A stretch of 50,490 bases of DNA from the IMG/VR virus record IMGVR_UViG_3300018067_000002, positions 1 through 50,490 of that record; one strand, 5' to 3'. The notes under the pieces are model-generated. The model worked only from the letters and a program-made list of their open reading frames with translations, ran no database searches and was not told the DNA's origin. The position numbers and the translations under genes are program-made. The DNA is from a virus. Lineage: Duplodnaviria; Caudoviricetes. This document shows positions 628 through 46,700 of this stretch, in pieces (within the stretch, counting starts at the first letter, position 1; every line of letters begins with the position of its first letter).

Positions 628-3135
628 ATGCCTGAATCGATTAGTTTCGACCAAGTCCTGGACGAGATCCTTCCTGCCGAATTACGGCAAGGTCTCGATT
701 CCATCATCCTTGATATCGACAACAAGGACCAGTTCGCTCGAGACCGCTTGATGAAAGTCTGCAAGCGCAACGAGTATTTCTGGGAAGGACTTCAGAACAT
801 CTACTTCAGCGAAGTCGCGCACGATTGGAGATACATCTCTCAGCATGGCGACGGCGAAGACGTCAACTACATGGAAGAAGCTGACGTCGAGAGCAAAATC
901 GTAAATATCTACAAGGCGCACGGTGAGATCATCATCGCCGCCGTTTCTCAGTCTATCCCTGCGACTCGTTTCTTTCCAAACGATGCTGACCAGTCGGCCG
1001 ACATCTACACAGCACAGTCATTCTCGCGACTCGCAGAGCTTATCAGAAAGCACAACAAAGCTCCTTTCCTCTTCATGAAAGCGCTCGGTCTTCTCTACAA
1101 CTCGGGCATGATCGCAGCCTACACCTATAACGACCAGCACGAGAAGTATGGTGTTGATCGGATCGACCACTTCAAACCGGGAGTGGCACAGACACAGGTT
1201 GACTACTGCCCCGACTGTGGAGAACAGTTAGCCGTTCAGCCGATGAACGGCCAAGAAGTTCCGGCGCCGCCACTTCCTCCGGAGACCGACTTGCCATCGC
1301 CACCTCCGGTGCCGGAAGGAGAACCATTGCTGGAGCCTCCCCCGGAAGCGGTGTCGGAACCATTACCCGTCGCTCCGCCTCCTCAAGGTCCGCCTCCGAT
1401 GCCGCCTCCTGGAGCGCCACAGGGCATGATGCCGCCAGAGATGGCAGGTATGGCTCCGCCTCAAGGTCAGACAGTCTGCCCCAATTGTGGAACGCCTGTT
1501 CAGCCCATGTCGGAAGTCGAAGAGGAGGAGACGCAGGAGTTCGATTATCAAGAAATCATTCCGAAGATGCGTCAGATCATCGAGTTGTATGGCCCGATGA
1601 GCGTGCAGATTTTTCCTCGCGCGCGCACGCTAGAACAGTCAGGATACCTCATTCTCAACAGTGAACACGATGTTGCTGAAATGCAAGAGAAGTTTCCGCA
1701 CATCGCGGACCAGATTACTCCTACAGCAGACTCCGAGAGATACGATCGATGGGTGCGCGCGCCGTCGTTGGTCCAATCGGATGACGACGCCGACGTATGC
1801 ACGTGTAGGCAAGTCTGGCTACGTCCCTGGATGTTCAACAAGCTCGGCAAGTCAGACGACGAAAGAATACTGGCGCTTAAGGAACAATTCCCTCGTGGTA
1901 TTCGAGCCGTCTACATCAACGACGTCCTCGCTGAGGTCAACGATGAAGATATGGACGAATACTGGACAGTTTCTGTTGATCCTATTCTAGATCGAGTCCA
2001 CGGTCAGCCCGTGGCAAACTCGGTTGTTCCTGTTCAGGAGATGACTAATGAACTATTCCAACTTACTGTTGAAACAATCCGATACGGAATCCCTGAGACA
2101 TTTGTTGATTCCAGTGTTATTGACTTTCAAAAATACCGGGAGATGGAAATCAGTCCTGGTTCGTTATATCCAGTTAAGGCTCCTGCTGGAGGTAATATCG
2201 GAGCAGCGTTCTACACAAACAAAGCCGCAATGTTATCTCGAGAACATAAGGAATTCGCTGACGATTTACAAGCTGCTGGTCAATTTGTACTCGGAACGGT
2301 TCCATCGGTTTATGGTGGTACCGCCTCCGGAGGATCTGACACAGCTGCTGAATATAGTATGTCGAGAGCTCAAGCTCTGCAACGACTACAAATCGTCTAT
2401 AAGATGATCTCGTTCTTCTGGTCTGATCTTGAGACGAAGGCAGTCAAGTGCTACGCCAAGAACATGAAGAACGACGAGAAGATCGTCAAGTCACAAGGTC
2501 GCAATTCATACATTAACGTGTGGATTCGCAAGGCCGAGATGACAGGCGAAGTCGGTCAGGTCGAGCCGGAGTTGAGCGAACAGTTTCCTCTGGCATGGTC
2601 GCAAAAACGTGACATCATTATGCGCCTCCTCGAGTTGAACAACGATGCCATCAACGAAGCAATGTTCCACCCAGAGAATCGACACACTGTCGCTGAACTC
2701 GTAGGCATCCCAGAACTCACAGTTCCCGGAGACGCAGACAGGACCAAGCAACTCTTCGAGATCTACGAACTACTCAAGGGTCAGCCACAGCCTGTCGGAT
2801 TGAATCCGATGGATGGAACTCCGATCCTTGAAGCGTCTGTTCCGATCGAGAAAGAGGTTGACGAGCACGGTGTCCACATCGCCATCATCAAAGAATGGTG
2901 CGTAGGCGAGATTGGGATGGATCAGAAGATGACGAATCCCGGTGGCTACATGAACGTCATCGCTCATCTACAGGCGCACACGGAGGCCGAGCAAGCTGAG
3001 ATGATGGAACAAATGATGATGCAAGGTGGAGCGCCTCCTGGAGGACCTCCGCCGTCAGGAGGAAAAGGATCGCCTCCGAAAGGTAAAGATACAGAGTCAA
3101 TTCCGGCTCCAAGAGGTGTAGCAAATGTTCCATAA
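628..3135 (+). CDS. Portal protein (podovirus/P22-like) with Pro-rich insert
   Basis: 835 aa; lies between the TerL region and scaffold/capsid; portal-like segments (VPVQEMTNEL, SDTAAEYSMSRAQA, AIIKEW...HLQAH) and a Gln/Pro/Met-rich tail. Confidence 0.75.
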   Translation: MPESISFDQVLDEILPAELRQGLDSIILDIDNKDQFARDRLMKVCKRNEYFWEGLQNIYFSEVAHDWRYISQHGDGEDVNYMEEADVESKIVNIYKAHGEIIIAAVSQSIPATRFFPNDADQSADIYTAQSFSRLAELIRKHNKAPFLFMKALGLLYNSGMIAAYTYNDQHEKYGVDRIDHFKPGVAQTQVDYCPDCGEQLAVQPMNGQEVPAPPLPPETDLPSPPPVPEGEPLLEPPPEAVSEPLPVAPPPQGPPPMPPPGAPQGMMPPEMAGMAPPQGQTVCPNCGTPVQPMSEVEEEETQEFDYQEIIPKMRQIIELYGPMSVQIFPRARTLEQSGYLILNSEHDVAEMQEKFPHIADQITPTADSERYDRWVRAPSLVQSDDDADVCTCRQVWLRPWMFNKLGKSDDERILALKEQFPRGIRAVYINDVLAEVNDEDMDEYWTVSVDPILDRVHGQPVANSVVPVQEMTNELFQLTVETIRYGIPETFVDSSVIDFQKYREMEISPGSLYPVKAPAGGNIGAAFYTNKAAMLSREHKEFADDLQAAGQFVLGTVPSVYGGTASGGSDTAAEYSMSRAQALQRLQIVYKMISFFWSDLETKAVKCYAKNMKNDEKIVKSQGRNSYINVWIRKAEMTGEVGQVEPELSEQFPLAWSQKRDIIMRLLELNNDAINEAMFHPENRHTVAELVGIPELTVPGDADRTKQLFEIYELLKGQPQPVGLNPMDGTPILEASVPIEKEVDEHGVHIAIIKEWCVGEIGMDQKMTNPGGYMNVIAHLQAHTEAEQAEMMEQMMMQGGAPPGGPPPSGGKGSPPKGKDTESIPAPRGVANVP

Positions 3136-4429: not shown

Positions 4430-5713
4430 ATGGCAATGGACGAAACTCAGGTAGCTGCTACCGAATTGGAGAACGTCCGAAAGAAGATTCCGATCCTTTT
4501 TGACAAAGAGGACACCTTTTACTCGCAGATCGAGAAGGGTGAGGTCGAACAGATTTCCAGCCGGGATATGAGAATCCCGCTCGAAATTCGGCCCGGTGGA
4601 CGCTTCGGACACTTTGATCCGGCAGGCGGCGACCTCGGACGCGGCGAAGGGCCGACTTACGAGAAGGCGGTCATCAACACCGTTCACTTGCGCCACGCAA
4701 TCGAATGGCACAAGAAGACGGAATGGTCGACGGATTCGCAGCGCAAGGCTGTGGTCCAGTCGGTCAAGAAGCTCCTTGCCTCCGGAATGGTGGAGTTTCG
4801 CCGAGCGGTAGATGCGCTCGCTGTGTCTTCCGACGGCACAGGGACGCTGGGAACCGTCTCTGCTTACTCCACGTCCGGCGGCAAGGACACGCTGACCTGT
4901 GCATCAGACGGCTACGGCGTGCGCCTGATGCGACACGGTCAGCTGTTGTCCCTCTACGACGCAACGCTGGCGGTTCGCAAGCCCTTCGTCGGGGCAGCGA
5001 CGCTCAACGGTGAAGCGCCTATCGATCTTCTGGACTTGCAGAACAAGACAGTCCGGATGAACGGTGCGGCAACGACGCCGGTCGCTGGCGACAAGCTCGT
5101 AGTCAGCGGTCTGACGTCGACTCCTCCGATCTCGCTTTACGGTGTTCCGTATCACGTATCGAATGCGAGCACTGGCTCGTGGCTCGGTCTTGATCGTGCG
5201 CTGTTCCCCGAGATTCGGGCGAATCGTGTCAACGCCAACGGAACGTCGCTGGCGCTTTCCTACGCGCGCGTTGCGCTCAACAAGGTCGGTGACCGTCTTG
5301 GTCAGGACCACGGCAACCGCGCAACAGCGTGGATGCATCCCGCACAGATCCAGGCTTACGAAGAGCTTGGTCAGTTGGTCATGAACATCGAAAAGACCGC
5401 TGGCAAGCAGAGCCTCGATCTCTACTTTGGTGACGGCGACAACTTCAAGATCGCCGGAACCTCCATCCGGAAGCACTATTCGTGGGACAAGCGTCGGATC
5501 GACTTCCTCGTGATGGACACGTGGGGGCGCGCCGAGATGCATCCTGCCGGATTCTACGAAGTTGACGGACGGAAGATTTTCGAAATTCGTGGCGCTTCGG
5601 GTGGCGTTGCGACGTCGCAAATCTTCTACACCGTGGCTTCGTTCAACATCTACAACTCGAACCCCGCGGCTTCGAGCTACATCGACAACCTCGCAGTTCC
5701 TGCGGGCTACTAA
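4430..5713 (+). CDS. Major capsid protein
   Basis: 427 aa, strong RBS (taggag), biased high-expression codons, follows the scaffold and is followed by a GC hairpin. Confidence 0.8.
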   Translation: MAMDETQVAATELENVRKKIPILFDKEDTFYSQIEKGEVEQISSRDMRIPLEIRPGGRFGHFDPAGGDLGRGEGPTYEKAVINTVHLRHAIEWHKKTEWSTDSQRKAVVQSVKKLLASGMVEFRRAVDALAVSSDGTGTLGTVSAYSTSGGKDTLTCASDGYGVRLMRHGQLLSLYDATLAVRKPFVGAATLNGEAPIDLLDLQNKTVRMNGAATTPVAGDKLVVSGLTSTPPISLYGVPYHVSNASTGSWLGLDRALFPEIRANRVNANGTSLALSYARVALNKVGDRLGQDHGNRATAWMHPAQIQAYEELGQLVMNIEKTAGKQSLDLYFGDGDNFKIAGTSIRKHYSWDKRRIDFLVMDTWGRAEMHPAGFYEVDGRKIFEIRGASGGVATSQIFYTVASFNIYNSNPAASSYIDNLAVPAGY

Positions 5714-7944: not shown

Positions 7945-9803
7945 TGATCGAAAACCACGTTCCAATACCCATTAACGATTTCAATGGTCTGTTCGACCGT
8001 GGTCCAGACGAGGCTATACCTCTCGATCATTTCAGAACTGCTCAGAACCTCAAATACAAGCCGACAGGCTTTTACACAAGGGAAGGCTCCATACTGTCAA
8101 CAACGTGTGGAGCCGTCCTTCGTTTTCACGTATACAAGATCACAGGACAAGCGTCAAGACTGCTTATCCTTTTAACTGGCGGACAGCTCTATGATTCCGC
8201 CAATATGTTGAATCCGATTCTTAATATTCCCACGATGACAGACTTCTCGATGGAAGTCTTTTTCGATAGAGCTTACATTACGCCACACAACGGACTCACC
8301 GGACTTCCTGGTCAGTTCGTTTACTACTACACAGGCTCCGGAACGGCTGTTGTCGCAGGTGGACCCGGACCTGCTATTGCGCCACCAATGGGTATTGCTC
8401 AAGGTGGTGCTGGACATATAGATAAAGGTATCCATGCGTTTGCTGTAGCGTTTGAGACCACAACAGGTTTCGTTACACAGATGGGTGGGTTCACGGGTAT
8501 CGTAACAAGTGGCGAGAAAACTGTCGAACTCTCTGGAATTCCTCTCGGTCCTGCTGGGACCGTAGCTCGTATACTGTTCGCAACTAAGGACGTTGCAGAT
8601 CCGGTAACAGGTCTTTACGATTGGGACTATGCTAATGCAGAATGGTTCTTCGTCCCAGAGGGACGGATCGCAAATAACACCACAACAACTAAATCAGTGT
8701 CGTTCTTCGATGCTGATCTCCAGGACCAAGCAGACTATATCCTTGAACAACTACCCACGATCCCTGCCGGAGTTGGGATCACCGCGTATAAAGGAAGCAT
8801 GGTTGTCTGGGGAGAAGATGCAAACCAATCCACCGTTCGGATCTCCAAGGCAGGACAGCCTGAATCTTTTAACGCAGTCGAAGGCTTCCTCCAAGTCGAA
8901 CCATCTAATGGTGGAGGAGTAAGAAACTGTGTGGAGTTCCGCTCGGCTCTTTACATCCTGAAATCCCAACGGTGCTATGCGACAGTTGCAACCGATGAAG
9001 AAGCGGCGTTCTGGGACGCGCCACTGCTCGACGGTTCCGCTGGAACTGAGTGTCACGGGATCGGAAAGATTTTTGAGCGGAACTCCAACACGGTCGACAA
9101 GTATCTGATTGCCTCTCGTCGTGGCTTGTTGCTCTTTACGGGTAACTTTCAAGAAGAAATCTCTTGGAAGGTGAAAGACATCTGGGGTCGTATTACTCCA
9201 CAATACTTTCACAAAATCCAAGTGATGGTCGACGCAGACAATCAGTTCATCTATGTGTCGTTGCCCATAGATGGTTCAACCGTCACGAACTGTGTTCTCT
9301 TTGCAGACTATTCAGTTAACCTGGATTCTGCAAAGGTCAAGTGGGCAGTCTGGACGTTTCCACACAAGCCTGTTTCGATCGCGCTCGACGTCGACGATGT
9401 CACCAAAGAGATTATCTTTCGATTCGCGCGTGAGGATCAGAACATCTACAGAATCCAGCCGAACGTCTGGAACGATTACGGGATCGCTATCAATACGATC
9501 TGGGAGACTGCACAGACACCGTTCGACTCTAAAGGCGAAGTGTTCCATCACGGAGGCGCGCGCCTTAGAGTCTATGGACAAGGCAATTTAGCTCTCACGG
9601 TCACGACGCTAGACAACGCTGTGGTCGCGCAACTTCCTGCAATCCCGTTGTTTCAGAATCCTGGAGTCTATCCCTTCAGATCATACAACATCCAGAGTGA
9701 GAAGGTTACTCTAAAAGGAACTCTGGACGCTTTTGACGAACACTTAGTTATCACTAAACTCTGGGTGTTTGTTAGACAACTCTGGCTTACGAGACCTCAG
9801 TAA
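7944..9803 (+). CDS. Putative tail nozzle/stabilisation protein (P22 gp10 or tubular B-like)
   Basis: 619 aa, beta-rich, FNGL N-terminal motif, TAATG coupling at both ends. Confidence 0.55.
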   Translation: MIENHVPIPINDFNGLFDRGPDEAIPLDHFRTAQNLKYKPTGFYTREGSILSTTCGAVLRFHVYKITGQASRLLILLTGGQLYDSANMLNPILNIPTMTDFSMEVFFDRAYITPHNGLTGLPGQFVYYYTGSGTAVVAGGPGPAIAPPMGIAQGGAGHIDKGIHAFAVAFETTTGFVTQMGGFTGIVTSGEKTVELSGIPLGPAGTVARILFATKDVADPVTGLYDWDYANAEWFFVPEGRIANNTTTTKSVSFFDADLQDQADYILEQLPTIPAGVGITAYKGSMVVWGEDANQSTVRISKAGQPESFNAVEGFLQVEPSNGGGVRNCVEFRSALYILKSQRCYATVATDEEAAFWDAPLLDGSAGTECHGIGKIFERNSNTVDKYLIASRRGLLLFTGNFQEEISWKVKDIWGRITPQYFHKIQVMVDADNQFIYVSLPIDGSTVTNCVLFADYSVNLDSAKVKWAVWTFPHKPVSIALDVDDVTKEIIFRFAREDQNIYRIQPNVWNDYGIAINTIWETAQTPFDSKGEVFHHGGARLRVYGQGNLALTVTTLDNAVVAQLPAIPLFQNPGVYPFRSYNIQSEKVTLKGTLDAFDEHLVITKLWVFVRQLWLTRPQ

Positions 9804-11248
9804 TGGGCATCCAGAGAGACTCACGGATCGAATCCCTAGGGAACGACGAACGTTCAGTTCTCGTTCTCAAGGAGATTCTCCGTGACTATAACAAGGATGT
9901 TCTTAGGATAAACGATCTTCTTCAGATTGTAAATGACCGCATATCCCCGCCTACGGGTGGGGGTGGTGTCGGTGCATCTCCTGAGCCTCCTAATTTCGCT
10001 GGACAAGTTCTTCCTTTTTCTATCTTTTTGTCATGGGGTTCGCCAGAACCCGCTGCACACATGTTCGAGATTCGTCGTAGCCCAGTTGTAGATTGGGTTA
10101 CGGCATCGTTCGTGACGCGCACTCCGTCATTTACTGTTAACCTTGCGCCTCTGCTCGTAGGATCATATTACTTTTTACTCAAGAGTATCGATGCTCTAGG
10201 TAACTACTCAATTAGCTACACGACAGTTCAATTAACAGTTCTTGCTCCAGGAACTCCTGCTGTTACAGCAACAGTTATTGACAACAACGTTCTTCTGTAT
10301 TGGGATGTTCCACAGACAAGTCATCAAATTGATCGATATAATCTTTACAAGAACGACGTATATTTCGGAACACATCGTGGCACGTTCGTTCCGATCTTTG
10401 AGACAATCTCCGGCACTTATACATACGCAATAGAAGCTGTTGATGTTGCTGGTAACGTAGGGCCAAGAGGGTCAGTAACTACAATTGTTAACCAGCCTCC
10501 AGACTTCGAGCTTGAAGATCAACGTATTACAGACTTGTATGGGACACGAGTTAATGTAGCTCGATTACCAGATGCAACGACTCCGTCTACGCCTACAAGG
10601 AAGTCTAGTCTGTTAGCTTGTGTTGATCTGACCGCTACGTGGGAACAGCATTTTACTTCTAAGTCATGGACGACGATCGAACAACAGATCAACGCTGGCT
10701 ATCCGATCTACATCCAACCGACGCTCTCAACAGGTTCATACGAAGAAGTCTTTGATTACTTAACAGAAATTCATAATACGATTGCGACGATCAATTACCA
10801 GTTTCTTGAGCACGTTGCACAAGTCGGACTTGTTATCAAGTTGGCTTGGTCGATAGACAATGTTACGTTTACTCCGTTCATAATAGGTAACTCTCAATTC
10901 ATACCACATTTTCGATACTTAAAGATGCGCCTCGAGTTTACTTGCGACAGTGATAAGGCACTGGGCGAGTTCTCGATGATTCAGATTACTCTCGACGTCA
11001 AAAAAGAAATGGACTCGGGAGAAATTATAGCTCTTGCAACTGACTTGACTGGAACACCAGTTCTGTTCACTAAGACGTTCAAGGATATCGATTCAATCAC
11101 CTGCACGGCAGATTCGATCGAACCGATTGACGTCATCTACGATTTCACAGACGTGCCCAATCCAACAGGATTCCGCGTCTTTGCAATGGATACCACAGGC
11201 AACCGAGTGACCTATCTCGTGTCGTGGAAGGCGAGAGGTATCACGTAA
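9803..11248 (+). CDS. Tail protein with fibronectin-III-like repeats
   Basis: Two LxWxxP...Y...A(I/V)DxxGN FN3 signatures (KSIDALGNYS, EAVDVAGNVG). Confidence 0.65.
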   Translation: MGIQRDSRIESLGNDERSVLVLKEILRDYNKDVLRINDLLQIVNDRISPPTGGGGVGASPEPPNFAGQVLPFSIFLSWGSPEPAAHMFEIRRSPVVDWVTASFVTRTPSFTVNLAPLLVGSYYFLLKSIDALGNYSISYTTVQLTVLAPGTPAVTATVIDNNVLLYWDVPQTSHQIDRYNLYKNDVYFGTHRGTFVPIFETISGTYTYAIEAVDVAGNVGPRGSVTTIVNQPPDFELEDQRITDLYGTRVNVARLPDATTPSTPTRKSSLLACVDLTATWEQHFTSKSWTTIEQQINAGYPIYIQPTLSTGSYEEVFDYLTEIHNTIATINYQFLEHVAQVGLVIKLAWSIDNVTFTPFIIGNSQFIPHFRYLKMRLEFTCDSDKALGEFSMIQITLDVKKEMDSGEIIALATDLTGTPVLFTKTFKDIDSITCTADSIEPIDVIYDFTDVPNPTGFRVFAMDTTGNRVTYLVSWKARGIT

Positions 11249-11976: not shown

Positions 11977-12323
11977 ACATGGCTAACACAGCATACACAC
12001 AACAAGCGTTAGCGTCGAATGCAAATTTCCAAACGCGCGTGAGGAATGCGATTTCGACGGTCGCGTGGCAGGTTCTCAATGAGCCAGCTAACACTCCGAA
12101 CAACAAGGCACGAGTGAACTACGCTCGATCCGTGATTGCCAATCTTCAGATGGCAGCGGTGACGATCTCGCCTTGGCTCGTGGATAGGCCAAATCTCTTT
12201 GGTTTTGAAACGACTTATGATTTTCCATCTGGTAATGTCGTAACAGCCTCAGGTGATGCAGACATTGAATCACAAATTGCAACCGATTGGGACGTATTAG
12301 CAGGTAACTTGGAGCCAGTATGA
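11973..12323 (+). CDS. Hypothetical tail-associated protein
   Basis: ATGA-coupled ORF in the tail module. Confidence 0.55.
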   Translation: MNMANTAYTQQALASNANFQTRVRNAISTVAWQVLNEPANTPNNKARVNYARSVIANLQMAAVTISPWLVDRPNLFGFETTYDFPSGNVVTASGDADIESQIATDWDVLAGNLEPV

Positions 12324-12511
12324 ATCAACCTTCTCAACTTGATCTTTCTCTTGAAGAAATCTACATAATCGTTGGTGAACTCGAAGTCGTCCGACGCAAA
12401 CTCAACATGCAAGTTCAGGGTTATCTGAAACAAATCGACGAGATGAGTGCAGAGATTACCAGATTGCGAGAGGAAAATGGCCGACTGGCTCAAACCGACA
12501 ATAACGAGTAA
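12320..12511 (+). CDS. Small coiled-coil protein
   Basis: Heptad pattern; ATGA-coupled. Confidence 0.55.
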   Translation: MNQPSQLDLSLEEIYIIVGELEVVRRKLNMQVQGYLKQIDEMSAEITRLREENGRLAQTDNNE

Positions 12512-13148
12512 CTACATCACGTTTGTCGACGAGGTCAAAGCTCGTGATGTTGACGCCATTACTCTGCAAGCTGTAGCCCTTGTTAATCCTCCAATATACG
12601 CCGTCAAATTGGTGCGAATGTCACCGTATCCAAATATCAGGTTTCAGGAGTGGAATGGGACAGCGTTTAACGAGTTGACTCTCTCTATACAAGGTGGAGG
12701 CACAGGCGCGAATTCTCTTGCTGGTCTTGCGTCTAATATGGGTCTGGGAACGATGGCGTATCAGAACTCCAATAACATCAGCGTTACTGGAGGATACCTA
12801 AATGGTGTGAGAATCGACAACCCTACCGTTTACGGGACATTTAATCAAAACTCTGGAGCTTACAATCTTCAGGGTAATATGAGCATTTATAACGTCACTA
12901 ACACTGGTGTCTCGTTCAATGTCTTGACAAATATTCCCAACAACTTTGCTGCTGTAATCCAACATGCTGGTATTCCCAGCCTTGGAGTGGTAATTCGTGC
13001 AGGGACGAGCAAGACAGATCAGTGTTTGAATTTAGAAAATGGAGCCGCAACGATCAACTGGTTGTTGGTTCGTGGCGATGGTGCGATGATATACAACTCC
13101 GCAAATCTAGCCATTCCGGTCGGAACAAATAGATTCGTCCCAGTATAG
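12477..13148 (+). CDS. Putative tail fibre protein
   Basis: RBS gaggaaa then ATG 12477; LSIQGGGTGANS...LGTMAYQN is a typical fibre shaft motif. Confidence 0.6.
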   Translation: MADWLKPTITSNYITFVDEVKARDVDAITLQAVALVNPPIYAVKLVRMSPYPNIRFQEWNGTAFNELTLSIQGGGTGANSLAGLASNMGLGTMAYQNSNNISVTGGYLNGVRIDNPTVYGTFNQNSGAYNLQGNMSIYNVTNTGVSFNVLTNIPNNFAAVIQHAGIPSLGVVIRAGTSKTDQCLNLENGAATINWLLVRGDGAMIYNSANLAIPVGTNRFVPV

Positions 13149-13150
13149 TC

Positions 13151-13978
13151 ATGGCTAAGCTACGTGGCTCTATTTGGATTAACGACAACCAGTTCTGCTA
13201 CATCGATGAATATGATCGAGAGTGGCGCTGGATAGGTCAACCAGTCGGTCCAACTGGTCCTTTAGTTCCAGGATCATTTTGGATGGAGTTAGACGATATC
13301 CGCTACGTGAATCAGGCTGGTAATTATGTCTATCAAATTATTGGACCAGTAATTCAGAATCATCCTACTGCACTTCGTGGTTCAATTTGGATCTCTCAAG
13401 GCTTCTTTCGATGGATTGATCGTTCTAGTAATGAGCGAGTAGCACATCAGGATGTGACCCATACCGATGGTGCTGGTGGACATTTAGACGTTCCTCACAC
13501 TGATACTGGACATGGTGACACTCATACCGATGGAACTCATGGAGACGTCCACACTGACGTTCCTCATAGTGACTTTCATGGTGATGGACATACTGATGTT
13601 CCTCATAGTGATCGTCCTCATACTGATACACACAGCGATGGGTCAATTCATAATGACCAACCAAACTATCACTTTGATTTTAATGACACAATACATAATG
13701 ATGGGGCTGGACATAGTGATATAAATGCACACGGTGACGGTGGAATTCAACACAATGATCACTATGATACTCATAACGATATAATTCATCTTGACGCACC
13801 TACAGTTATTGACCACAACGATCAAGCACATCAAGATTCTCCCGCTCAGGTCGGTCATATAGATTCCTCTCATGGGGATACGCATTCAGATGCTCCACCT
13901 ATAAGCGTCCCGCACCAGGATCACACAGATGCCTCATCAGGCGCGCATCAAGACAATCCTCAGTATATTGGACCATGA
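13151..13978 (+). CDS. His-x-Asp repeat protein (candidate radical SAM substrate / virion appendage)
   Basis: Three N-terminal (R/P)GS(I/F)W repeats, then 31 HxD motifs from residue 99 onward. Confidence 0.85.
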   Translation: MAKLRGSIWINDNQFCYIDEYDREWRWIGQPVGPTGPLVPGSFWMELDDIRYVNQAGNYVYQIIGPVIQNHPTALRGSIWISQGFFRWIDRSSNERVAHQDVTHTDGAGGHLDVPHTDTGHGDTHTDGTHGDVHTDVPHSDFHGDGHTDVPHSDRPHTDTHSDGSIHNDQPNYHFDFNDTIHNDGAGHSDINAHGDGGIQHNDHYDTHNDIIHLDAPTVIDHNDQAHQDSPAQVGHIDSSHGDTHSDAPPISVPHQDHTDASSGAHQDNPQYIGP

Positions 13979-15234
13979 CTATAGAATATTTGCCTGTCGG
14001 CATCGCGTGCAATCTCGGTTGCACTTACTGTTACCAAGATCCTATGAGGGATGCTGGCAATATCAATGTGCCTCGTAATTGGGAACGTGTTAAGGAGCAG
14101 TTGCTTGCCTATGGGAGCAGCTTCTCTGTTTTTGGAGGCGAGCCGTTACTTGCATCTATTGAGCACCTAGAAGAGGTTTGGAAATTTGGATACGAACGTT
14201 TTGGTCAGAATGGAATACAGACAAATGGATCTCTTATTACTGATGCGCATATTGAGCTTTTCAAAAAGTATCAGGTCGGTGTTGGTATATCTATTGATGG
14301 CCCTGGAGTTCTCAACAGTGCTCGTAGCTGCGGTATTGATACTCCAGCTGCTACTGACAGAACCCTGTTCGCTATTAGAAGACTGTGCGACGCTGGGATA
14401 CCTCCTTCCTTAATTATCACTATCCATCCGATCAATGCTGGTGGTGACAGACTGTTAGAGCTACTAGCATGGCTCGATAGCATGGAGAAGATCGGAATCC
14501 AATATATCAACTTTCATATCCTCGAGGTCGAGAAAGGCAAAGAGGATATGATGTTTACTGTGGAAGAAAATACAGACGTCTTTACTCGCCTCTATCTGTG
14601 GTCGAAGGCATCGAAGATGCGAGTTGAGCCGTTCTGTGACATCCGGTCTTTACTGACGGAGATACATCCACATGTCTCTTGTGTTTGGAACCATTGTGAT
14701 CCTGCTACGACGGCCGCTGTCCAGGGTATCGGCCCTGATGGGACGCGCAGCAACTGTGGTAGGACTAACAAGGACGGTGTTAATTGGGTTAAAGGGGATA
14801 CACCGGGTTTCGAGCGCTATCTCCTCTTGCGCCAGACGCCCCAAGAAGTTGGAGGTTGTAAAGGTTGCTCCTTCTTCATTTTTTGTAAAGGACAGTGTCC
14901 TGGAACTGCTATCGACGGAGACTGGCGAAACAGAACAAGAGACTGCAAGACGTGGTATGCACTCTTTGAACGAATTGAAATAGACGTCGTTCGAGACGGT
15001 CTTGTTCCAATTTCGTTAAATTGTTCTCTTAAGTCTGAAATAGAAGACGACCTTGTAAGACAGTGGTCAGGCGAAAACGCTCATCATGCAGACGTTCCGC
15101 ATGGTGACGTTCCTCATGGAGACGATCACGGAGACTCTCCTCACGGAGATGGACACTACGATACGAATCCAAAGCCGAGACAAGGTATTCCAGGAGTATG
15201 GCTAGATGAACCGCCTAAACTTTTCTCTTCCTGA
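13975..15234 (+). CDS. Radical SAM/SPASM-domain maturase-like enzyme with HxD tail
   Basis: CNLGCTYC (CxxxCxxC), GGEP, QTNG, ISIDGP; SPASM cysteines SCVWNHC...PDGTRSNC...CKGCSFFIFCKGQC...DC; six HxD motifs at the C-terminus. Confidence 0.92.
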   Translation: MTIEYLPVGIACNLGCTYCYQDPMRDAGNINVPRNWERVKEQLLAYGSSFSVFGGEPLLASIEHLEEVWKFGYERFGQNGIQTNGSLITDAHIELFKKYQVGVGISIDGPGVLNSARSCGIDTPAATDRTLFAIRRLCDAGIPPSLIITIHPINAGGDRLLELLAWLDSMEKIGIQYINFHILEVEKGKEDMMFTVEENTDVFTRLYLWSKASKMRVEPFCDIRSLLTEIHPHVSCVWNHCDPATTAAVQGIGPDGTRSNCGRTNKDGVNWVKGDTPGFERYLLLRQTPQEVGGCKGCSFFIFCKGQCPGTAIDGDWRNRTRDCKTWYALFERIEIDVVRDGLVPISLNCSLKSEIEDDLVRQWSGENAHHADVPHGDVPHGDDHGDSPHGDGHYDTNPKPRQGIPGVWLDEPPKLFSS

Positions 15235-16561
15235 GTTCACTCGTATTATTTGGTCTTCTACAAAAGCACGAGCTACTTGGAAGCCAAGGATCGACGCAAT
15301 CAATAATGTCTGGCCTGAGATAGAGCGCGCCACAGTTTCTACGCAGATGCGACCTGGAGGCTTACAGTCGATTGCTCCTGAGAACTTACTGACGTTCCAA
15401 GCGAATTGCTTCAACGCGCACATGCAATACGCTATCGTCGGTCGAGAGGGCACGAGCCCAGTTTACGGTAACGCTTCACAGCCTGTCCAAGACGACAAGC
15501 CGTGGCACTACCGAGTCTACTTTGGCACAGATCCAAAGACGTTTCTACAAGAGTGGGCAGAGGGAAACCAGCTACGGATCGGAGACTTCCTCGGGTATCC
15601 TCGTTGCTGTTCGGAGTTCTTTCAGTCATGTTGGGTTAATGATGGCTGGAGAGATCTGACGTATCCGATGATGAGAAACAGCCAGAACAATGGACCATAC
15701 ACCTGTAATATCTTACTTAGACATATTGGTGTTCGTCCTGTGTTTCATCTCCCTTGCAGCTTTAATTGCGATTCTACTGGACATATTGGAGAGGAAATAA
15801 TCGAGTGCGCGTGCCAGATGGGTTTCGACATCGAAATGAGTTGGCTGAAGAACATTCTCAGTTGGCCTATTCGATGGTCGTCCATGCATGGAGTTGCTAT
15901 AATAACTACGCCGGTTGTAAAGATCATCACGTCTTCCGATGCACTAGAGGGCCGTGTAGACTTGGACAGACCGGGTAACAGCTACCCGGAGGAAGGAGCT
16001 TCAGGAAACGAGTTCCCTTTCTCCCAGGTTCCCATGTCACTATTAGAAGGAATTCGGGATACGTGGACTGACAACGGCTTCGGGTCCTTTTCAGCTATGC
16101 GAAAGGCGCACGGCTTGGTGCTGAGGACGATTTCGACGATCTACTTGGATAGTGGTAGGATTATCGATCTCGGTTGTGGCAACGGTATCCTACTTGAACG
16201 TATACATAAAGAGCATCCGCATCTGATTCCTTACGGAGTCGAATACGAGTCAGGAGCATATTCGAGAGCAAGAGAACGTATCGGAGAAGAGATTTGGTTT
16301 TACGACCTCTACGATACGGACAAATACTTGCAAGAGAACTTTCAGATTGCTATCATTTCTTTGAACCGTTTCAAGGAGATCGATGAAGAGAAGTCTGAGA
16401 TATTTCTCAAGCATCTTCGTAATCATGTCAATTTCTTAGTGGTATACTCCTATGAAGACTGGAAGCCAGATTTGGACAATCTTCTTTCTCACCACTTTCA
16501 TATGGTGGGTGTTGAAACAAATGAGGATTCTGAAGTAAGAATATTCAGACCGAGAAGCTAG
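15206..16561 (+). CDS. Cys-rich DUF483-like domain fused to a class I SAM-dependent methyltransferase
   Basis: LGYPRCCSEFF and HLPCSFNC in the N-terminal half; IIDLGCGNG motif I and YGVE motif II in the C-terminal half. Confidence 0.7.
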   Translation: MNRLNFSLPEFTRIIWSSTKARATWKPRIDAINNVWPEIERATVSTQMRPGGLQSIAPENLLTFQANCFNAHMQYAIVGREGTSPVYGNASQPVQDDKPWHYRVYFGTDPKTFLQEWAEGNQLRIGDFLGYPRCCSEFFQSCWVNDGWRDLTYPMMRNSQNNGPYTCNILLRHIGVRPVFHLPCSFNCDSTGHIGEEIIECACQMGFDIEMSWLKNILSWPIRWSSMHGVAIITTPVVKIITSSDALEGRVDLDRPGNSYPEEGASGNEFPFSQVPMSLLEGIRDTWTDNGFGSFSAMRKAHGLVLRTISTIYLDSGRIIDLGCGNGILLERIHKEHPHLIPYGVEYESGAYSRARERIGEEIWFYDLYDTDKYLQENFQIAIISLNRFKEIDEEKSEIFLKHLRNHVNFLVVYSYEDWKPDLDNLLSHHFHMVGVETNEDSEVRIFRPRS

Positions 16562-16572
16562 CCGTTCACCCG

Positions 16573-16959
16573 ATGAACACCTTGCGCGCCTATCAGCCGT
16601 CAGATCTTGCTGCTATCAGTAAGATTTGGGAAGACCATCACTCGTCCTTTTACGGTTTGCCAGATCGTAGGGCTGCTGTTATTGACGCCGTCGTCGAAAA
16701 CGATGGCAAGATCATAGGCTACGGACAGGTCAGACTGTTTGCTGAAGCTATGCTCTTTCTTGATATGGACGCGCCTCTGCGGTCAAGGATACAGGCGTTA
16801 CAACAGTTGATGCGTGAGGCTTTTCGTGGGACAGAACGTGCTGGTCTACGAGAGATTTACGCATTTATTCAAGACCCTGACTTCTCCTTATTAATGCAAA
16901 AGCATTTCCATTTTGTGGCAGCCGACAAACCCGGTGAGCTGCTCGTAAAGGAGCTATGA
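16573..16959 (+). CDS. GNAT-fold acetyltransferase-like protein
   Basis: LRAYQPSDLAAI...VVENDGKIIGYG; sits before the ejection proteins, as in P22/T7-like phages. Confidence 0.55.
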   Translation: MNTLRAYQPSDLAAISKIWEDHHSSFYGLPDRRAAVIDAVVENDGKIIGYGQVRLFAEAMLFLDMDAPLRSRIQALQQLMREAFRGTERAGLREIYAFIQDPDFSLLMQKHFHFVAADKPGELLVKEL

Positions 16960-18281
16960 TGGGTGGAAGCAAAACGAATAAGCAGAATCAGGCAAATCAG
17001 ACCCAGAACAACGCCTATCAGACCCAGTTCGAGAACGAGCAGCAGCAACGGTCGAAAGAGGCGTATGACCGCTCTAACACAGCGTGGGGCGGAGCCAACG
17101 ATACGTATCAAAACTTCGCAAAAGGCGGAGGCAAAGAGTTGCTCGACGGCATGGGTAACTACCAAGCCGGTGGCGACGGCGGAGCGGCTGGCGATCCGCG
17201 CTTCGGTGAAGTCGAAGGTTCGTATCGGAACTTCATGAACACTGGTGGCGTGGATACAGGCAGGTTCAATCAGTTCCAAGGGAACCTCCTCGACATTGGA
17301 GCCACAGGTGGATGGGATCAGGCTGCGCGTGACAACGTCAACAGATCGATAGCTGGCTACCAGAATTTCGCGGACACTGGAGGAGTCAGTGCCGAAGATC
17401 AAAACCGAATGCGCGGCATGGGTATTTACGACGAGTGGTCAAAAACCGGCGGCGTATCAGATGCTGATAAAGCTAATATCCGTGCTCGAGGCAACTCGGT
17501 TATCCCCGCATTCTACAATCGAGTACGAGAAGAAAGCAACAGGCTCGGTCGTGTGCAGGGTGGTGGAGGACCTGGACAAGCAGCACTGATGTCCCGACTC
17601 GCCCGCGATCAATCGAGAGGCGCACAGAGCGCTGCGCTCCAGACTGAGGGCGGACTAGCTGATACGATCCGTTTAGGCCAGAAGTGGGGCACTGAGGGGA
17701 TGGAACGGTCTGAGGCTGGGCTGCAAGAATTGCTCTCCAAGAATAAGCTCGCTGGCATGGGCGGCGTAGCAGACGCTACAGGTTTGATGGCAAACTCGAT
17801 TGCTCAGAATCGGACTGCTGCGTCAGCTGCTGGAGGTGGCAATGAAATCGGAATGCAAGGACTCATTTCCGGAAACAAACTCCAGGGAACTCGGGGACTT
17901 GAGGGAATGGCTGAGTCATCAGCTGCACGAGGGGCAGCTTCTAGTAACGCTGCTGCTGCAGACGCGAGATGGAGAGCTTCATTCCTTGCAGATAATATGC
18001 TTGCCGGAGCAGGTGGGCTCCGTGGTCTCAGAACTGATGTCCCCGGAGAAGTTGCTCTCTACGATCAGAACCGCCTCAACAGCCGACAGATTTGGAACCA
18101 AGGGAATCAGATAAATCAGCAACCCCAAGGCGGAGGAACTGATTGGGGCCAAGTCGCTGGAGCCGGAGCTAACGCGGCTGCAACATACTTCGGTGGTCAG
18201 ACAGGCAACACCGGAGTCAACGGTAGACCGAGAAACCCCTACGGCTACGACCAAGCCGAAGGCTATTACGGACCTGGTTAA
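16956..18281 (+). CDS. Putative DNA ejection/internal virion protein
   Basis: MGGSK start; Gly/Gln/Ala/Asn-rich. Confidence 0.55.
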   Translation: MMGGSKTNKQNQANQTQNNAYQTQFENEQQQRSKEAYDRSNTAWGGANDTYQNFAKGGGKELLDGMGNYQAGGDGGAAGDPRFGEVEGSYRNFMNTGGVDTGRFNQFQGNLLDIGATGGWDQAARDNVNRSIAGYQNFADTGGVSAEDQNRMRGMGIYDEWSKTGGVSDADKANIRARGNSVIPAFYNRVREESNRLGRVQGGGGPGQAALMSRLARDQSRGAQSAALQTEGGLADTIRLGQKWGTEGMERSEAGLQELLSKNKLAGMGGVADATGLMANSIAQNRTAASAAGGGNEIGMQGLISGNKLQGTRGLEGMAESSAARGAASSNAAAADARWRASFLADNMLAGAGGLRGLRTDVPGEVALYDQNRLNSRQIWNQGNQINQQPQGGGTDWGQVAGAGANAAATYFGGQTGNTGVNGRPRNPYGYDQAEGYYGPG

Positions 18282-23859: not shown

Positions 23860-26295
23860 TTATGCCGCCCTCTTGATTGTGTAATCTTCTAGGTCCTTGT
23901 AATTGGGTCCGACCTTTGCTTCAGCCGGGATAACAATACTTCCTCGTGGGAGTGTGCAATTTGAGAAGTCAATGGGACGCTCGAAAGCTGGGATAGCGAT
24001 AGACAGATACTCGTCGACCTCTGTCTCCCGCACTAGTGCAACTAGTGCATCGTGCGCCTCTACGCAGATGCCTGTTGTAACTTTGTAATCGTCACCCCAA
24101 ATCCGAACATCACCCGCAGTTGTGTCACGGATTTCCAACAGGGCACGTTTAGTGTTATCTGTAATCGTCGACTGAGGAATCTGAGAGAAAGCCTCCTTTT
24201 CGAGTTCGTGGTCAAGACGTCCAAAGAACTGTCTTCGTCGTCCGAAAGGATTAATGAGAACACGCTCATTGTCTCGTATGGCTTGCAAGACTTCAAGATG
24301 GAAAACCTGACGTATCTTCGGAGAAAATGCGTGGAACGCGTCCAGTATTTGGCCTGCGCGCCACTCGGAAATCTGGATGTCAATGTGAAACTTCTTGGCG
24401 TCCGTATTGACGATCTGCATGAGGCGTTTCTTGCCCATTCCGTAATTTCCTGCATGACGTGTCGTCTTTCCCACAAACCGTAGCTCTTTGGTCACCCTGT
24501 CAACCGAGACATTGAAAATCATTGAAGCTGTCAGCTTGTGAACATCGGTCGTGTTGAACAGTTCCAATAGTTCGTAATCTGTCCCCAACAACGCAACGCA
24601 ACGGGCCTCGGCCTGCGACGAGTCGATCTCAACAAATACGTAGCCATCATCTGCGACGAACTGACTTCTTAAATCTGCACCCGTATCTCCATGCTTTGTC
24701 ATCGTTTGAAAAGCAAGGCCGACCTTACTAGGTCTTATGGGTGCTTTAAGGATCGAAGTTGACGTTCGACCCGTTTCCGCTCCGACAATTCTATACTGGG
24801 TTCGCATCCGACCATCGTAGTCGGGCTTGGCCTCGAGATAAGTTCCGATCGTTTTCCTTATTCTTCTCGTAAGGAGAATATCAGTGAGTATTTGTTTCTG
24901 ATCTTCTGTCTTGCAGTGGTTCCCTTGTAGCGCAACCAGTGTATCCTCAGACGAGTCTTTCCGAACCGGAAGACCCATGTCGTGGTATAGCAGGTGATTG
25001 ACTTGTTTGGGGCTGTTCGTGTTGATCGGATGACCAACGGCATCATTTAGCCTCGTCTGGCATTCTTCGAGTTGCGCGCGATACTTCTTACGGAGCGACT
25101 TGTTAATCGTAGTATCAACACGCATCCCAACAGACTCCATATCTCGATAGGCAATATGGAAGCGATTGACAAAATTGTAGTAGAAATCTCTGAGACCATA
25201 GACGTCAAGTTCTTTGTCCTCTTCTTCCCAGACCTCATAGGTGATAGCAGAGTCCTTCGCGTTGTAAAGGTATAGTCTATCGTAGCTGTCTTTCTTCGGA
25301 TTGAACTCACGGCCTTCTACCTTGTAGTATGGTTCCTCTGTCCAAATAGATGCAAGGAACCCGAGGTTCATGGGAAACTCTGGGTAGAGAGTGTGAGCCA
25401 TCAACATCGTGTCTGCATAGACGTTTGCAGGACGGAAGTTGCATGGCGATCTTAGCTTCTGATCGTCGAACTTGAAGTTCTGGCCGACTAATTTGTATTC
25501 AGGATTGTTGAGAATCTTCCCAACCATTTCCCACATCTGGACTAGCTCATGGTAAGGTATCCAGATTGGACTCGTATGGTCAACGAGGTTAATGAGTGGA
25601 ATCGAGATCGCGTGGAAGCGTGTGAATGCGAACGAGATGCATGAAGGAATGCACTTAGCTGTCTCGATGTCAGAGGCAACAATACGTTTGTCTGCATACA
25701 TCCGAAAGAAGCGAAAGACGTCAAGAGAATTCCTTGCTACATTCAGTGTCCTTGCAGGCACGCGGTATTCAGGGAACTCCGACTGTCGTGCAGCTTTCTT
25801 GAAGTCTAGCACGACGTAAGCGCGCGCTGAGTAATCAGCTACTTCACCACCTTGCTGTCTTAGTAGATGAGCAGGATGATAAGTAACAGCAACTTTGTGC
25901 TTATGGTTCGAGGATCTAAGAACGGAGCCACGGTATTGTTTAACTCCTGTTTTGTCAGTTAACGCCTGCAACGCAGTGTTGCCGAGTGCAAGTATGCAGT
26001 TCGGCTTCAAGACGTCCATCTCGTCCAGCAAGTCAGAAGTTGACTGAGCGAGAGACACGTCTATTTCGTTGAGCCGCTTGAGATCGTTGTCTGGAGGACG
26101 AAACTTAACTACGTTCGTCAAGTAACAGTCGTTCCGGTTGATGCCAGCTTCGCGTAACAGGGAGTCGAGCATCTCTCCAGACGCGCCAACGAAGGGGCGC
26201 CCAGCTATGTCCTCATCATAGCCGGGTGCCTCTCCCACGATAGCGAGCTTCGCTCCGATTGGTCCGATGCCTGGGACTTCTTTAGGTTTGTCCAT
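23860..26295 (-). CDS. polA: Family A DNA polymerase with N-terminal family-4 uracil-DNA glycosylase-like domain and 3'-5' exonuclease
   Basis: UDG: GEAPG, YLTNVVKFRPP, LGNTA, TYHPA. Exo: SDIET, GQNFKFD, YNAKD. Pol: TGRTS, DSSQAEAR (A), KTTRHAGNYG (B), AHDAL (C). Confidence 0.93.
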   Translation of the reverse strand: MDKPKEVPGIGPIGAKLAIVGEAPGYDEDIAGRPFVGASGEMLDSLLREAGINRNDCYLTNVVKFRPPDNDLKRLNEIDVSLAQSTSDLLDEMDVLKPNCILALGNTALQALTDKTGVKQYRGSVLRSSNHKHKVAVTYHPAHLLRQQGGEVADYSARAYVVLDFKKAARQSEFPEYRVPARTLNVARNSLDVFRFFRMYADKRIVASDIETAKCIPSCISFAFTRFHAISIPLINLVDHTSPIWIPYHELVQMWEMVGKILNNPEYKLVGQNFKFDDQKLRSPCNFRPANVYADTMLMAHTLYPEFPMNLGFLASIWTEEPYYKVEGREFNPKKDSYDRLYLYNAKDSAITYEVWEEEDKELDVYGLRDFYYNFVNRFHIAYRDMESVGMRVDTTINKSLRKKYRAQLEECQTRLNDAVGHPINTNSPKQVNHLLYHDMGLPVRKDSSEDTLVALQGNHCKTEDQKQILTDILLTRRIRKTIGTYLEAKPDYDGRMRTQYRIVGAETGRTSTSILKAPIRPSKVGLAFQTMTKHGDTGADLRSQFVADDGYVFVEIDSSQAEARCVALLGTDYELLELFNTTDVHKLTASMIFNVSVDRVTKELRFVGKTTRHAGNYGMGKKRLMQIVNTDAKKFHIDIQISEWRAGQILDAFHAFSPKIRQVFHLEVLQAIRDNERVLINPFGRRRQFFGRLDHELEKEAFSQIPQSTITDNTKRALLEIRDTTAGDVRIWGDDYKVTTGICVEAHDALVALVRETEVDEYLSIAIPAFERPIDFSNCTLPRGSIVIPAEAKVGPNYKDLEDYTIKRAA

Positions 26296-26891: not shown

Positions 26892-27157
26892 CAGATATGA
26901 CCCCAAGACTTTCTTCTGCCCTTATCCCAGCAGTCTCGAATGTTTTGTCGTCTCGTGCCTTCCCACAGATGTTCAGGTTCGACACAATTCTTTGTATCAC
27001 AATGGTGACAACAATCGTGTTTGGGTTTAATAGGCCGTCCAAGTTTTTGTTCTAACACAACTCGTGTCAGGCGCACAGTTTTACCGTTGCGCGTTACTAA
27101 TGGATAGCCATTGTTTAGACTTTTCCAAACAAGTTTACAAGGCTTTGTAAGAATCAT
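26891..27157 (-). CDS. HNH endonuclease
   Basis: NGYP...CHHCDTKNCVEPEHLWEGTRRQNIRD. Confidence 0.85.
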   Translation of the reverse strand: MILTKPCKLVWKSLNNGYPLVTRNGKTVRLTRVVLEQKLGRPIKPKHDCCHHCDTKNCVEPEHLWEGTRRQNIRDCWDKGRRKSWGHI

Positions 27158-46303: not shown

Positions 46304-46700
46304 TCTTTTTCGTCCCTCTTACAAGGTTTCTCTGGAACAAAAGGGTTGTCTTGGCTGTTCTGCGCGGCAGGCGCACATCGAAGATTTACAGAACCTGCTT
46401 CGCTCGGAACGAGAAGGCAATTCGATACTACAAACTGTCTTGTTCCAGAAGGTCGGTTACGTTGCTCCGACGGTTTCGCAAGAAACGTCAGACATGAAGC
46501 CGTTGCGTAGCATCCAGACGATTGGAGACCTACGTAGACAGGCAGAGAACAGAGAAGCTGAGAAGTTTCCCGATGCTCGTAAAGAATACTGGACTAAAGT
46601 TCAGGCTCAATACGATAAAGCTGGAAAACTTCCAAGAATTGAGCCTAAGACCGAGCCAGAGTATCCCGAAGTAACAGCACAAGATACTGGAAATGGCTGA
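46290..46700 (+). CDS. Hypothetical protein
   Basis: CLGC then coiled coil; overlaps both neighbours. Confidence 0.6.
   Translation: MWLIDLFRPSYKVSLEQKGCLGCSARQAHIEDLQNLLRSEREGNSILQTVLFQKVGYVAPTVSQETSDMKPLRSIQTIGDLRRQAENREAEKFPDARKEYWTKVQAQYDKAGKLPRIEPKTEPEYPEVTAQDTGNG

Follow-up and report, generated by a model that had tools for sequence, protein, structure and literature searches.

A phage protein built of His-x-Asp triplets as candidate substrate for cross-linking into cyclophanes by a neighbouring radical SAM enzyme

What function might be served by a phage protein in which almost every histidine is followed, two residues later, by aspartate? The question arises from a gene at 13151-13978 (+ strand) of the virus record IMGVR_UViG_3300018067_000002 (Duplodnaviria; Caudoviricetes), a complete record of 50,490 bp that was analysed over its whole length and will be called the window. 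The gene is an open reading frame (ORF) encoding 275 aa, and I will refer to its product as the HxD protein. By my estimate, there is roughly one chance in two that it is associated with the fibre and that the radical S-adenosylmethionine (rSAM) enzyme encoded beside it turns its aromatic-x-Asp/Asn triplets, by cross-linking, into cyclophanes of three residues.

The HxD protein contains 32 His residues, only one of which (H71, within HPT) precedes residue 99. From H99 to H266, all 31 His residues stand in the motif H-x-D. The array runs from 13445, the start of the first His codon, to 13954, the end of the last Asp codon (510 bp, + strand, residues 99-268), and comprises 31 H-x-D triplets and one F-N-D, the latter within HFDFND at residues 174-179. 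At the middle position stand Q, T, L, G, S, N, F, Y, and I, and the codons are mixed (CAT and CAC for His, GAT and GAC for Asp). When the 177-residue region (31 H, 33 D) was shuffled 100,000 times, the number of H-x-D triplets averaged 5.7 (standard deviation 2.0) with a maximum of 16, far below the 31 observed. The distance between successive His residues is never less than three, a property reached by 0 of 20,000 shuffles, and the spacing of the triplets is irregular, from 3 to 10. The claim from which this study began, an initial annotation that every His after residue 98 has Asp at +2, is thus borne out, and so are the coordinates it gave, the residues it listed for the middle position, its mention of HFDFND, and its remark that the codons vary.

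Might the array have arisen by slippage of DNA? Tandem Repeats Finder, run at a minimum score of 30, finds only two duplications beneath the 510 bp, at 13537-13611 (39 bp x 1.9) and 13589-13627 (15 bp x 2.6), so that a little duplication has taken place recently, but taken as a whole the array is no repeat at the level of DNA. Slippage can be ruled out as its cause on the basis of the shortness of these two duplications, the varied codons, and the retention of the grammar in homologues that, in an alignment of 37 sequences, are 27-68% identical to the window protein. The initial annotation was therefore right to place the grammar at the level of the protein. A pentapeptide-repeat fold was also rejected: the window protein has no Pfam match and its spacing is irregular, and one homologue alone (from locus L029) touches Pentapeptide_2, at 22.4 bits as compared to a gathering score of 26.4.

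A word-indexed search with the HxD protein returned 24 proteins, all without assigned names, and a scan of viral contigs provided 34 loci. Within the first 24 homologues, 661 of the 696 His residues in the repeat region are found in H-x-D. Over 54 distinct homologues, the proportion in H-x-[D/N] is 1621 of 1665, or 97% (1391 H-x-D, 230 H-x-N, and 44 other), with the two forms mixed in the proteins of L010-L014 and L020. The spacing of H and D, the loss of which in homologues was to count against the initial annotation, is therefore kept in the family. A profile of the N-terminal domain was compared to 1.84 billion cluster representatives and matched 540 of them at E <= 0.001. The best 150 of these include 142 that are new, and 113 of the 142 extend at least 30 aa beyond the N-terminal domain. 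A significant aromatic-x-[D/N] array is carried by 74 of the 113, and in these 74 representatives 1290 of 1365 His residues lie inside the motif.

What replaces His where it is absent? Phe does so in the clade L026-L036, where the triplets form strict pentads and F-x-N accounts for 11/11, 12/12, 13/13, and 20/21 of the Phe residues. Over the 54 homologues, F-x-[D/N] holds for 143 of 206 Phe residues (near 100% in that clade), and F/Y-x-[D/N] is observed 191 times, as compared to 109 +/- 9 (maximum 139) in 2000 shuffles. Aromatic residues other than His account for at least 40% of the motifs in 17 of the 74 repeat-bearing representatives. They include P0057, where 6 of 6 Trp residues are in W-x-D, P0070, where 13 of 19 Tyr residues are in Y-x-D, and P0138, which has no His at all and has 12 of 13 Phe residues in F-x-[D/N], of the F-x-N type. 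The lone F-N-D of the window, with Phe, Tyr, and Trp taking the position of His in homologues, thus does keep the aromatic-x-Asp register ascribed to it.

The remaining positions are also constrained. Asn takes the place of Asp in 230 cases among the 54 homologues, and Glu does so in 1 of 696 (first 24 homologues) and 3 of 1365 (74 representatives). Among the residues two places before the 754 Asp of the first 24 homologues, Cys does not occur and Glu occurs only twice. Of approximately 5350 residues in the spacers, 484 are Pro, as compared to 2 of the 1764 in the middle position. Motifs never start two residues apart and do so one residue apart in 7 cases, the commonest distance being five. 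The rule is therefore an aromatic residue, any residue but Pro, and Asp or Asn, in non-overlapping units. The initial annotation had proposed to distinguish a cyclophane substrate, in which His should be replaced by aromatic residues, from a metal site, in which it should be replaced by other metal ligands, and it is aromatic residues (Phe, Tyr, Trp) that are found. Conserved metal-ligand residues are not kept at the motif positions. Since Phe, Tyr, and Trp stand in for His, position 1 appears to require an aromatic ring rather than a metal ligand, and this exchange, together with that of Asp for Asn and not Glu, favours a cyclophane substrate.

The gene that follows encodes an rSAM/SPASM enzyme of 419 aa (13975..15234, + strand; Pfam Radical_SAM, E 2e-13), its ATG overlapping the TGA of the HxD gene (ATGA). 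The enzyme has CxxxCxxC at residues 12-19 and the full set of SPASM cysteines. Invariant in 24 homologues are C12, C16, C19, C236, C241, C261, C295, C298, C304, C308, and C324. Its best NCBIfam matches are AmcB, DynA, anSME, DarW, YhhB, and GrrM/OscB, all far under their cut-offs (bits/cut-off for the cyclophane-related models: AmcB 81.2/425, YhhB 55.6/445, GrrM/OscB 48.4/310, FxsB 37/370, XyeB 32.9/450). All 24 homologues likewise match families of rSAM/SPASM enzymes that modify peptides or proteins (TIGR04083, DynA, AmcB, anSME, YhhB, PapB, GrrM/OscB, FxsB, XyeB). The best sequence matches in the PDB are anSME (4K36-4K39; E 8.9e-13) and then the cyclophane synthase ChlB. In anSME, as in the window enzyme, the rSAM motif stands at the very N-terminal end of the chain; anSME belongs to the rSAM/SPASM enzymes, takes whole proteins as substrates, and abstracts a hydrogen from a beta-carbon. 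Unlike anSME, the window enzyme reaches only 74.6 bits against TIGR03942 (cut-off 349.45), and its presumptive substrate lacks the Cys/Ser motif of sulfatases.

The enzyme carries triplets of its own. In its C-terminal tail (15079..15165, + strand), 6 of 7 His residues are in H-x-D, and the HxD protein matches the tail at E 1.6e-5. The pair of triplets formed by H385, D387, H394, and D396 is conserved in at least 90% of the 24 enzymes, though the enzyme of L017 has no tail. A 15-bp x 2.7 repeat underlies the tail at 15085-15124. The tail might serve as a pseudo-substrate or as a tether, or might be modified by the very enzyme that bears it.

A third gene overlaps that of the enzyme by 29 nt and encodes a protein of 451 aa (15206..16561, + strand) with sub-threshold Pfam matches to DUF483 and to methyltransferase families. 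The DUF483-like domain occupies approximately residues 1-300, and a domain resembling SAM methyltransferases is fused behind it, as in most viral loci. Invariant residues are C134, C135, H181, P183, C184, and C188 (CC...HxPCxxxC), and DLGCGNG is present in homologues. Although the AlphaFold2 (AF2) model has a mean confidence (pLDDT) of 89.5, no solved fold is convincingly like the DUF483-like domain, the best being 2guk (Z 6.5 over 101 residues) and NleE (Z 4.0). Foldseek gave no match to the domain at E <= 0.001, and the Atlas gave only viral DUF483 clusters.

How firmly are the three genes linked? The rSAM gene comes after the repeat gene in 31 of the 34 viral loci, and in the other three (L023, L025, L027) the sequence stops before, or less than 190 bp beyond, the repeat gene. 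Of the 34 loci, 28 then have the DUF483 gene, the other six ending before or within approximately 520 bp after the rSAM gene. The trio is kept in L020, L022, and L026-L036, loci whose flanking genes show no similarity to those of the window. It is also carried by cultured phages of Thermus, phiMa (genes 29, 28, and 27) and Cumys. The product of phiMa_29 has 342 aa and is the HxD protein, 32% identical to that of the window (by tblastn, over 97% of the length), and phiMa_28 is the rSAM enzyme, 49% identical (by tblastn for the module of phiMa and Cumys, 49-50% over 87%). The product of phiMa_27 is a DUF483 protein without the methyltransferase domain; gene order and sequences were read in locus L037. 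Thermus phage phiLo (L038) has the DUF483 gene (phiLo_141, again without the methyltransferase domain) and an rSAM enzyme whose long tail contains several HxD triplets. Genes for IS605-type transposases lie directly upstream of the phiLo enzyme.

A scan with the enzyme alignment, using one genome per species, extended the search to cellular organisms and found 27 close loci; the organisms belong to many phyla of bacteria, with two archaea among them. The DUF483 gene is adjacent or fused in 26 of the 27, and by a fixed criterion an ORF rich in H-x-[D/N] is present in 14. Short HxD peptides of 63-87 aa are encoded in the bacterial loci L048, L050, and L051, just upstream of the fused enzyme. Where neighbours were sampled, in L048, L041, and L047, they proved to be genes of cells (among them UvrA, Wzz, TPR, and planctomycete cytochromes), and the cassette is therefore not solely a phage trait.

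The cellular and viral loci show a few further variations. The enzyme and DUF483 domain are fused in one ORF in L048, L050, L051, L054, and L057. N-termini resembling signals of the RR type precede H-x-D triplets in L041:9784-10206, L046:9219-9500, and L061:9271-9540, which suggests that these proteins may be exported after modification. In a Firmicutes metagenome-assembled genome (L064:5273-6953), H-E-N-V-S pentads (H-x-N) lie beside the same enzyme, partly hidden by a stretch of N. Two ORFs in different frames share the array in the F-x-N clade (L026:7095-8000, L029:7297-8283, L033:7179-7949), and the second of them, in L026-L036, consists only of repeats, has no N-terminal domain, and ends in the conserved C-terminal strand motif. 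Some of the first ORFs (L032-L036) end in a Cys-rich tail. The same clade has an ORF of 118-132 aa, starting with HxD triplets, between the rSAM and DUF483 genes (L026:9404-9802), and the HxD pair in the tail of the enzyme is kept even here, where the substrates are mostly H/F-x-N.

Where might the HxD protein be situated? Its N-terminal domain (13151..13444, + strand, residues 1-98) consists of three GSxW beta-hairpin repeats, and AF2, given the 37-sequence alignment, predicts residues 1-100 with pLDDT above 90, as 11 strands in three four-stranded repeats. As an unmodified monomer, the array is predicted to be disordered, with pLDDT below 50 over most of residues 108-239. The C-terminus, encoded with the stop codon at 13955..13978 (+ strand), forms a predicted strand at residues 271-274 (within NPQYIGP; block mean pLDDT 93), and in 16 homologues P270 is invariant and G274 at least 90% conserved. 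Since all other strands lie in the N-terminal domain, the C-terminal strand probably docks there in the model, leaving the array as a closed loop anchored at both ends. The best solved structures resembling the N-terminal domain are beta-prism II lectins and the bacteriocin LLPA, and the resemblance is weak (Z 4.7-2.4). The protein starts with MAKLRGSIW and has no hydrophobic signal segment.

Directly upstream, at 12447..13148 (+ strand), lies a gene encoding a tail-fibre-like protein of 233 aa from a GTG start (PHROG tail fibre phrog_25747, E 8.6e-5); an internal ATG would give MADWLKPT.... The ORF has IPVGTNRF-VPV at its C-terminus and is separated from the HxD gene by 2 nt, and the motif [VILA]PVGx[DN][KRL][FYW] ends the upstream ORF in 13 of the 34 viral loci. 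Of 166 homologues collected, 27 are extended by more than 60 aa at the N-terminus, mostly with the start MAWTxPxTW, and in 17 of these 27 fused proteins a motif of the PVGxDKY type lies approximately 17 aa before the GSxW domain. The gene upstream of the HxD gene in L026 encodes a collagen-like tail fibre. In the window, the HxD gene sits in a block of structural genes on the + strand, after those for the portal (628-3135), the major head protein (4430-5713), and a tail/host-specificity protein (9803-11248). From the gene fusions and the position in the late operon, I infer that the HxD protein is associated with the fibre.

The GSxW domain itself has a wider distribution. Of the 113 tails described above, 39 have no repeats, and the domain is also paired with other C-terminal parts. 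The three-hairpin domain is joined to unrelated parts, for example Cys-rich ones, in P0027, P0035, P0055, P0062, P0074, and others, and tandem copies of it at the C-terminus have also been seen. As a module of phage fibres, it is thus more general than the HxD array.

These elements may be combined in the following scheme. The 275-aa protein would be expressed late and become associated with the tail fibre, and its triplets would be the substrate of the co-translated rSAM/SPASM enzyme. The SAM-bound [4Fe-4S] cluster of the enzyme would give rise to a 5'-deoxyadenosyl radical, which would take a hydrogen from position 3, at the beta-carbon of Asp or Asn, both of which have a beta-CH2 next to a carbonyl. 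The resulting carbon radical would attack the ring at position 1, at C2 of the imidazole in the case of His or at a ring carbon in the case of Phe, Tyr, or Trp, and the auxiliary SPASM cluster would accept the electron. The product would be one three-residue cyclophane (-2 Da) per triplet, up to approximately 32 rings per chain. The array, a loop of approximately 170 residues held at both ends by the beta-prism-like domain, would become rigid, resistant to protease and heat, and rich in imidazole and carboxylate, all at the fibre. The DUF483-like/methyltransferase protein would be an obligatory partner, responsible for a second tailoring step or for handling of the substrate.

The scheme may be compared to what is known of triceptides. 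Passages of PMC11499958 describe the enzymes HaaB (acting on HAA), YhhB (HNR), and HtkB (HTK) as forming a cyclophane from C2 of His to the beta-carbon of residue 3, with HtkB accepting Phe and Trp at position 1. The window system is similar in having repeated aromatic-X-X motifs beside an rSAM/SPASM enzyme and in tolerating His, Phe, and Trp at position 1, in so far as those passages describe triceptides. It is similar also in offering a beta-CH2 at position 3, and its enzyme matches the models for YhhB, GrrM/OscB, FxsB, XyeB, and AmcB. It differs in that its substrate would be a protein of 215-424 aa with a folded beta domain and approximately 16-60 motifs, rather than a short leader-core peptide, in that position 3 is fixed as Asp/Asn, and in that it has an obligatory DUF483 partner and is encoded by a phage within a tail-fibre block. 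Moreover, with its rSAM motif at residue 12, the enzyme has no room for an N-terminal recognition domain. Judged by sequence, the window system resembles triceptide systems on many features but is a member of no curated family.

Two other systems bear on the question. The three-gene family of the window is the same as the rSAM module named in phiMa and Cumys, for which DNA modification has been suggested and two of whose proteins are called unknown (passages of PMC11437467); those passages do not mention His-x-Asp repeats. I would argue, from the family matches of the enzyme and the co-inherited repeat gene, that the module is more plausibly devoted to the modification of protein than of DNA. 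Apart from this module, no literature was found on His-x-Asp repeat proteins accompanied by an rSAM enzyme, though lists of triceptide precursors (Sugiyama et al. 2022, PMC11499958) could include HxD families. The second system is the antiphage system HXS, which, as described in passages of PMC13128918, consists of HxsA, with five His-x-Ser repeats, the rSAM enzymes HxsB and HxsC, and HxsD. HxsA is matured by rSAM chemistry into an effector that blocks the entry of phage DNA. In both HXS and the window, a protein with repeats of His-x-small residue is accompanied by a co-encoded rSAM enzyme that matures it, or in the window may do so, and both touch the biology of phage and host. The window differs in having one rSAM enzyme rather than two, DUF483 rather than HxsD, and 31 repeats rather than five, and in that its protein lacks a signal peptide or peptidoglycan-binding domain and is encoded by a phage rather than by the host. 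Membership in HXS can be rejected: the enzyme scores 22.4 bits against TIGR03978 (HxsB; cut-off 370), and TIGR03977 (HxsC) and TIGR03979 (HxsA) have no match at E <= 10.

Several considerations weigh against the formation of cyclophanes on a fibre protein. The substrate would have 275 aa and a folded domain (100 aa predicted with confidence), unlike the known precursors of triceptides, and the enzyme has no extension before Cys12 able to hold a domain for leader recognition. No precedent was found for a chain bearing approximately 30-60 rings. The enzyme reaches at most 81 bits against every curated model of a cyclophane synthase (cut-offs 310-450), its 24 homologues likewise stay under the cut-offs, and the anaerobic sulfatase maturase and a peptide-modifying family of methanogens score about equally well. 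The N-domain profile finds no N-domain repeat protein in the 178 kb of phiLo, and 13 of the 27 bacterial rSAM-DUF483 loci have no H-x-[D/N]-rich ORF by the criterion used, although one of these (L061) has a peptide with three motifs, found by eye. The location in the virion rests on gene order and fusions, and the PHROG match of the upstream protein is weak. HxsA, the nearest analogue with repeats, is modified at SHRSS by +8 Da, not -2 Da (passages of PMC13128918), and the one paper that names the module suggests, in the passages concerned, modification of DNA (PMC11437467).

Some of these points speak for an alternative that is doubtful but survives better than the others, that the same enzyme acts on the same substrate with some other radical chemistry at each triplet, possibly in conjunction with the methyltransferase domain. 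Candidates include a C-N link from imidazole nitrogen to C-beta, a one-carbon bridge like that of HXS, oxidation of the beta-carbon, epimerisation, and methylation. The +8 Da of HxsA fits such a possibility, as do the position of anSME, an oxidiser of beta-carbons, as the best solved match, the failure of the enzyme to reach the cut-off of any curated cyclophane family, and the methyltransferase-like domain fused to the partner in the window and most viral loci. What tells against it is the grammar: a rule that binds two positions and excludes Pro between them is what closure of a ring from residue 1 to residue 3 would predict, and a chemistry confined to single residues needs no such rule. 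Methylation cannot be the core step, because phiMa_27 and phiLo_141 lack the methyltransferase domain, and the HXS family scores given above also tell against this alternative.

It is improbable that the HxD protein is no part of the virion but rather an exported or intracellular effector, comparable to HxsA and serving, for example, in superinfection exclusion, that happens to be encoded in the late operon. HxsA does provide the example of an rSAM-matured His-repeat protein that stops phage DNA from entering (passages of PMC13128918), the bacterial HxD peptides of L041, L046, and L061 have signal-like N-termini of the RR type, and the cassette exists in non-phage neighbourhoods. Against this stand the lack of a hydrophobic signal segment at the start of the window protein, the location of its gene directly after one for a tail-fibre-like protein, the fusion to such proteins in homologues, and, once more, the failure of the HXS family models to match.

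The initial annotation had offered a different alternative, a dense Fe/Ni/Zn-binding fibre. The analogy was to the HxH iron sites in the fibre tip of T4 gp37, which is like the window family in that a protein of a phage fibre bears a periodic motif rich in His and unlike it in that the window family has Phe, Tyr, or Trp at the position of His and is linked to an rSAM enzyme. Though His and Asp are classical ligands of Fe, Ni, and Zn, the tail of the enzyme has HxDHxD as well, and DNA modification as proposed for the module (passages of PMC11437467) would give the rSAM and DUF483 genes a separate purpose, an unmodified metal-binding fibre is very improbable and is disfavoured as the conserved function, given the replacement of His by other aromatics (entirely so in P0138) and of Asp by Asn rather than Glu, the lack of any Cys in place of His among the first 24 homologues, the joint inheritance of the trio across unrelated phage backbones and in non-phage bacterial loci, and the match of all 24 enzymes to families that modify peptides or proteins.

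The rest of the window may be described briefly. It has a terminal repeat of 123 bp (1-123 = 50368-50490). Structural genes on the + strand occupy bases 1 to approximately 22,800, and genes for replication lie on the - strand: a PolA fused to a uracil-DNA glycosylase (UDG), an SNF2 helicase, and a ParB-DNA methylase. The first of these (23860-26295, - strand) is a family A DNA polymerase with an N-terminal domain of the UDG superfamily, and the last (27157-28431, - strand) joins a ParB-N domain and a DNA methylase in one ORF. An ORF of 1266 aa with a NUDIX domain (46693-50490) is open at its 3' end and, in view of the terminal repeat, probably continues into the 5'-open ORF at 1-627. A search of the window for tRNA genes found none, and a DNA-level search with 12000-17000 against a phage collection found no match.

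To return to cross-linking by cyclophanes, a broader proposition may be ventured, more tentatively and with the odds somewhat against it: that phages staple a fibre protein of the virion, placing approximately 30 rSAM-made three-residue rings on a structural protein of 275 aa, by means of an undescribed maturation system (rSAM and DUF483) for aromatic-x-Asp/Asn motifs that is common to phages, bacteria, and archaea. The question of cyclophanes can be put directly to the test, since phiMa and Cumys grow on Thermus thermophilus HB8, a laboratory strain. If the proposition is true, this would be the first case of cross-linking of a viral structural protein in the manner of peptides made by the ribosome and modified after translation (RiPPs), and among natural polypeptides none would come close to the protein in the density of its macrocycles. 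With dozens of sites processed per chain, the enzyme would be useful in making poly-macrocyclic proteins. The DUF483 family would acquire a function, as would the unexplained rSAM module of Thermus phages. The stapled loop would represent a new principle by which fibres are stabilised, one with relatives in the Thermus phages of hot springs, and rSAM cyclophane chemistry, so far known only from small bacterial peptides, would be seen also to build whole proteins, in this case part of the apparatus by which a phage binds its host.

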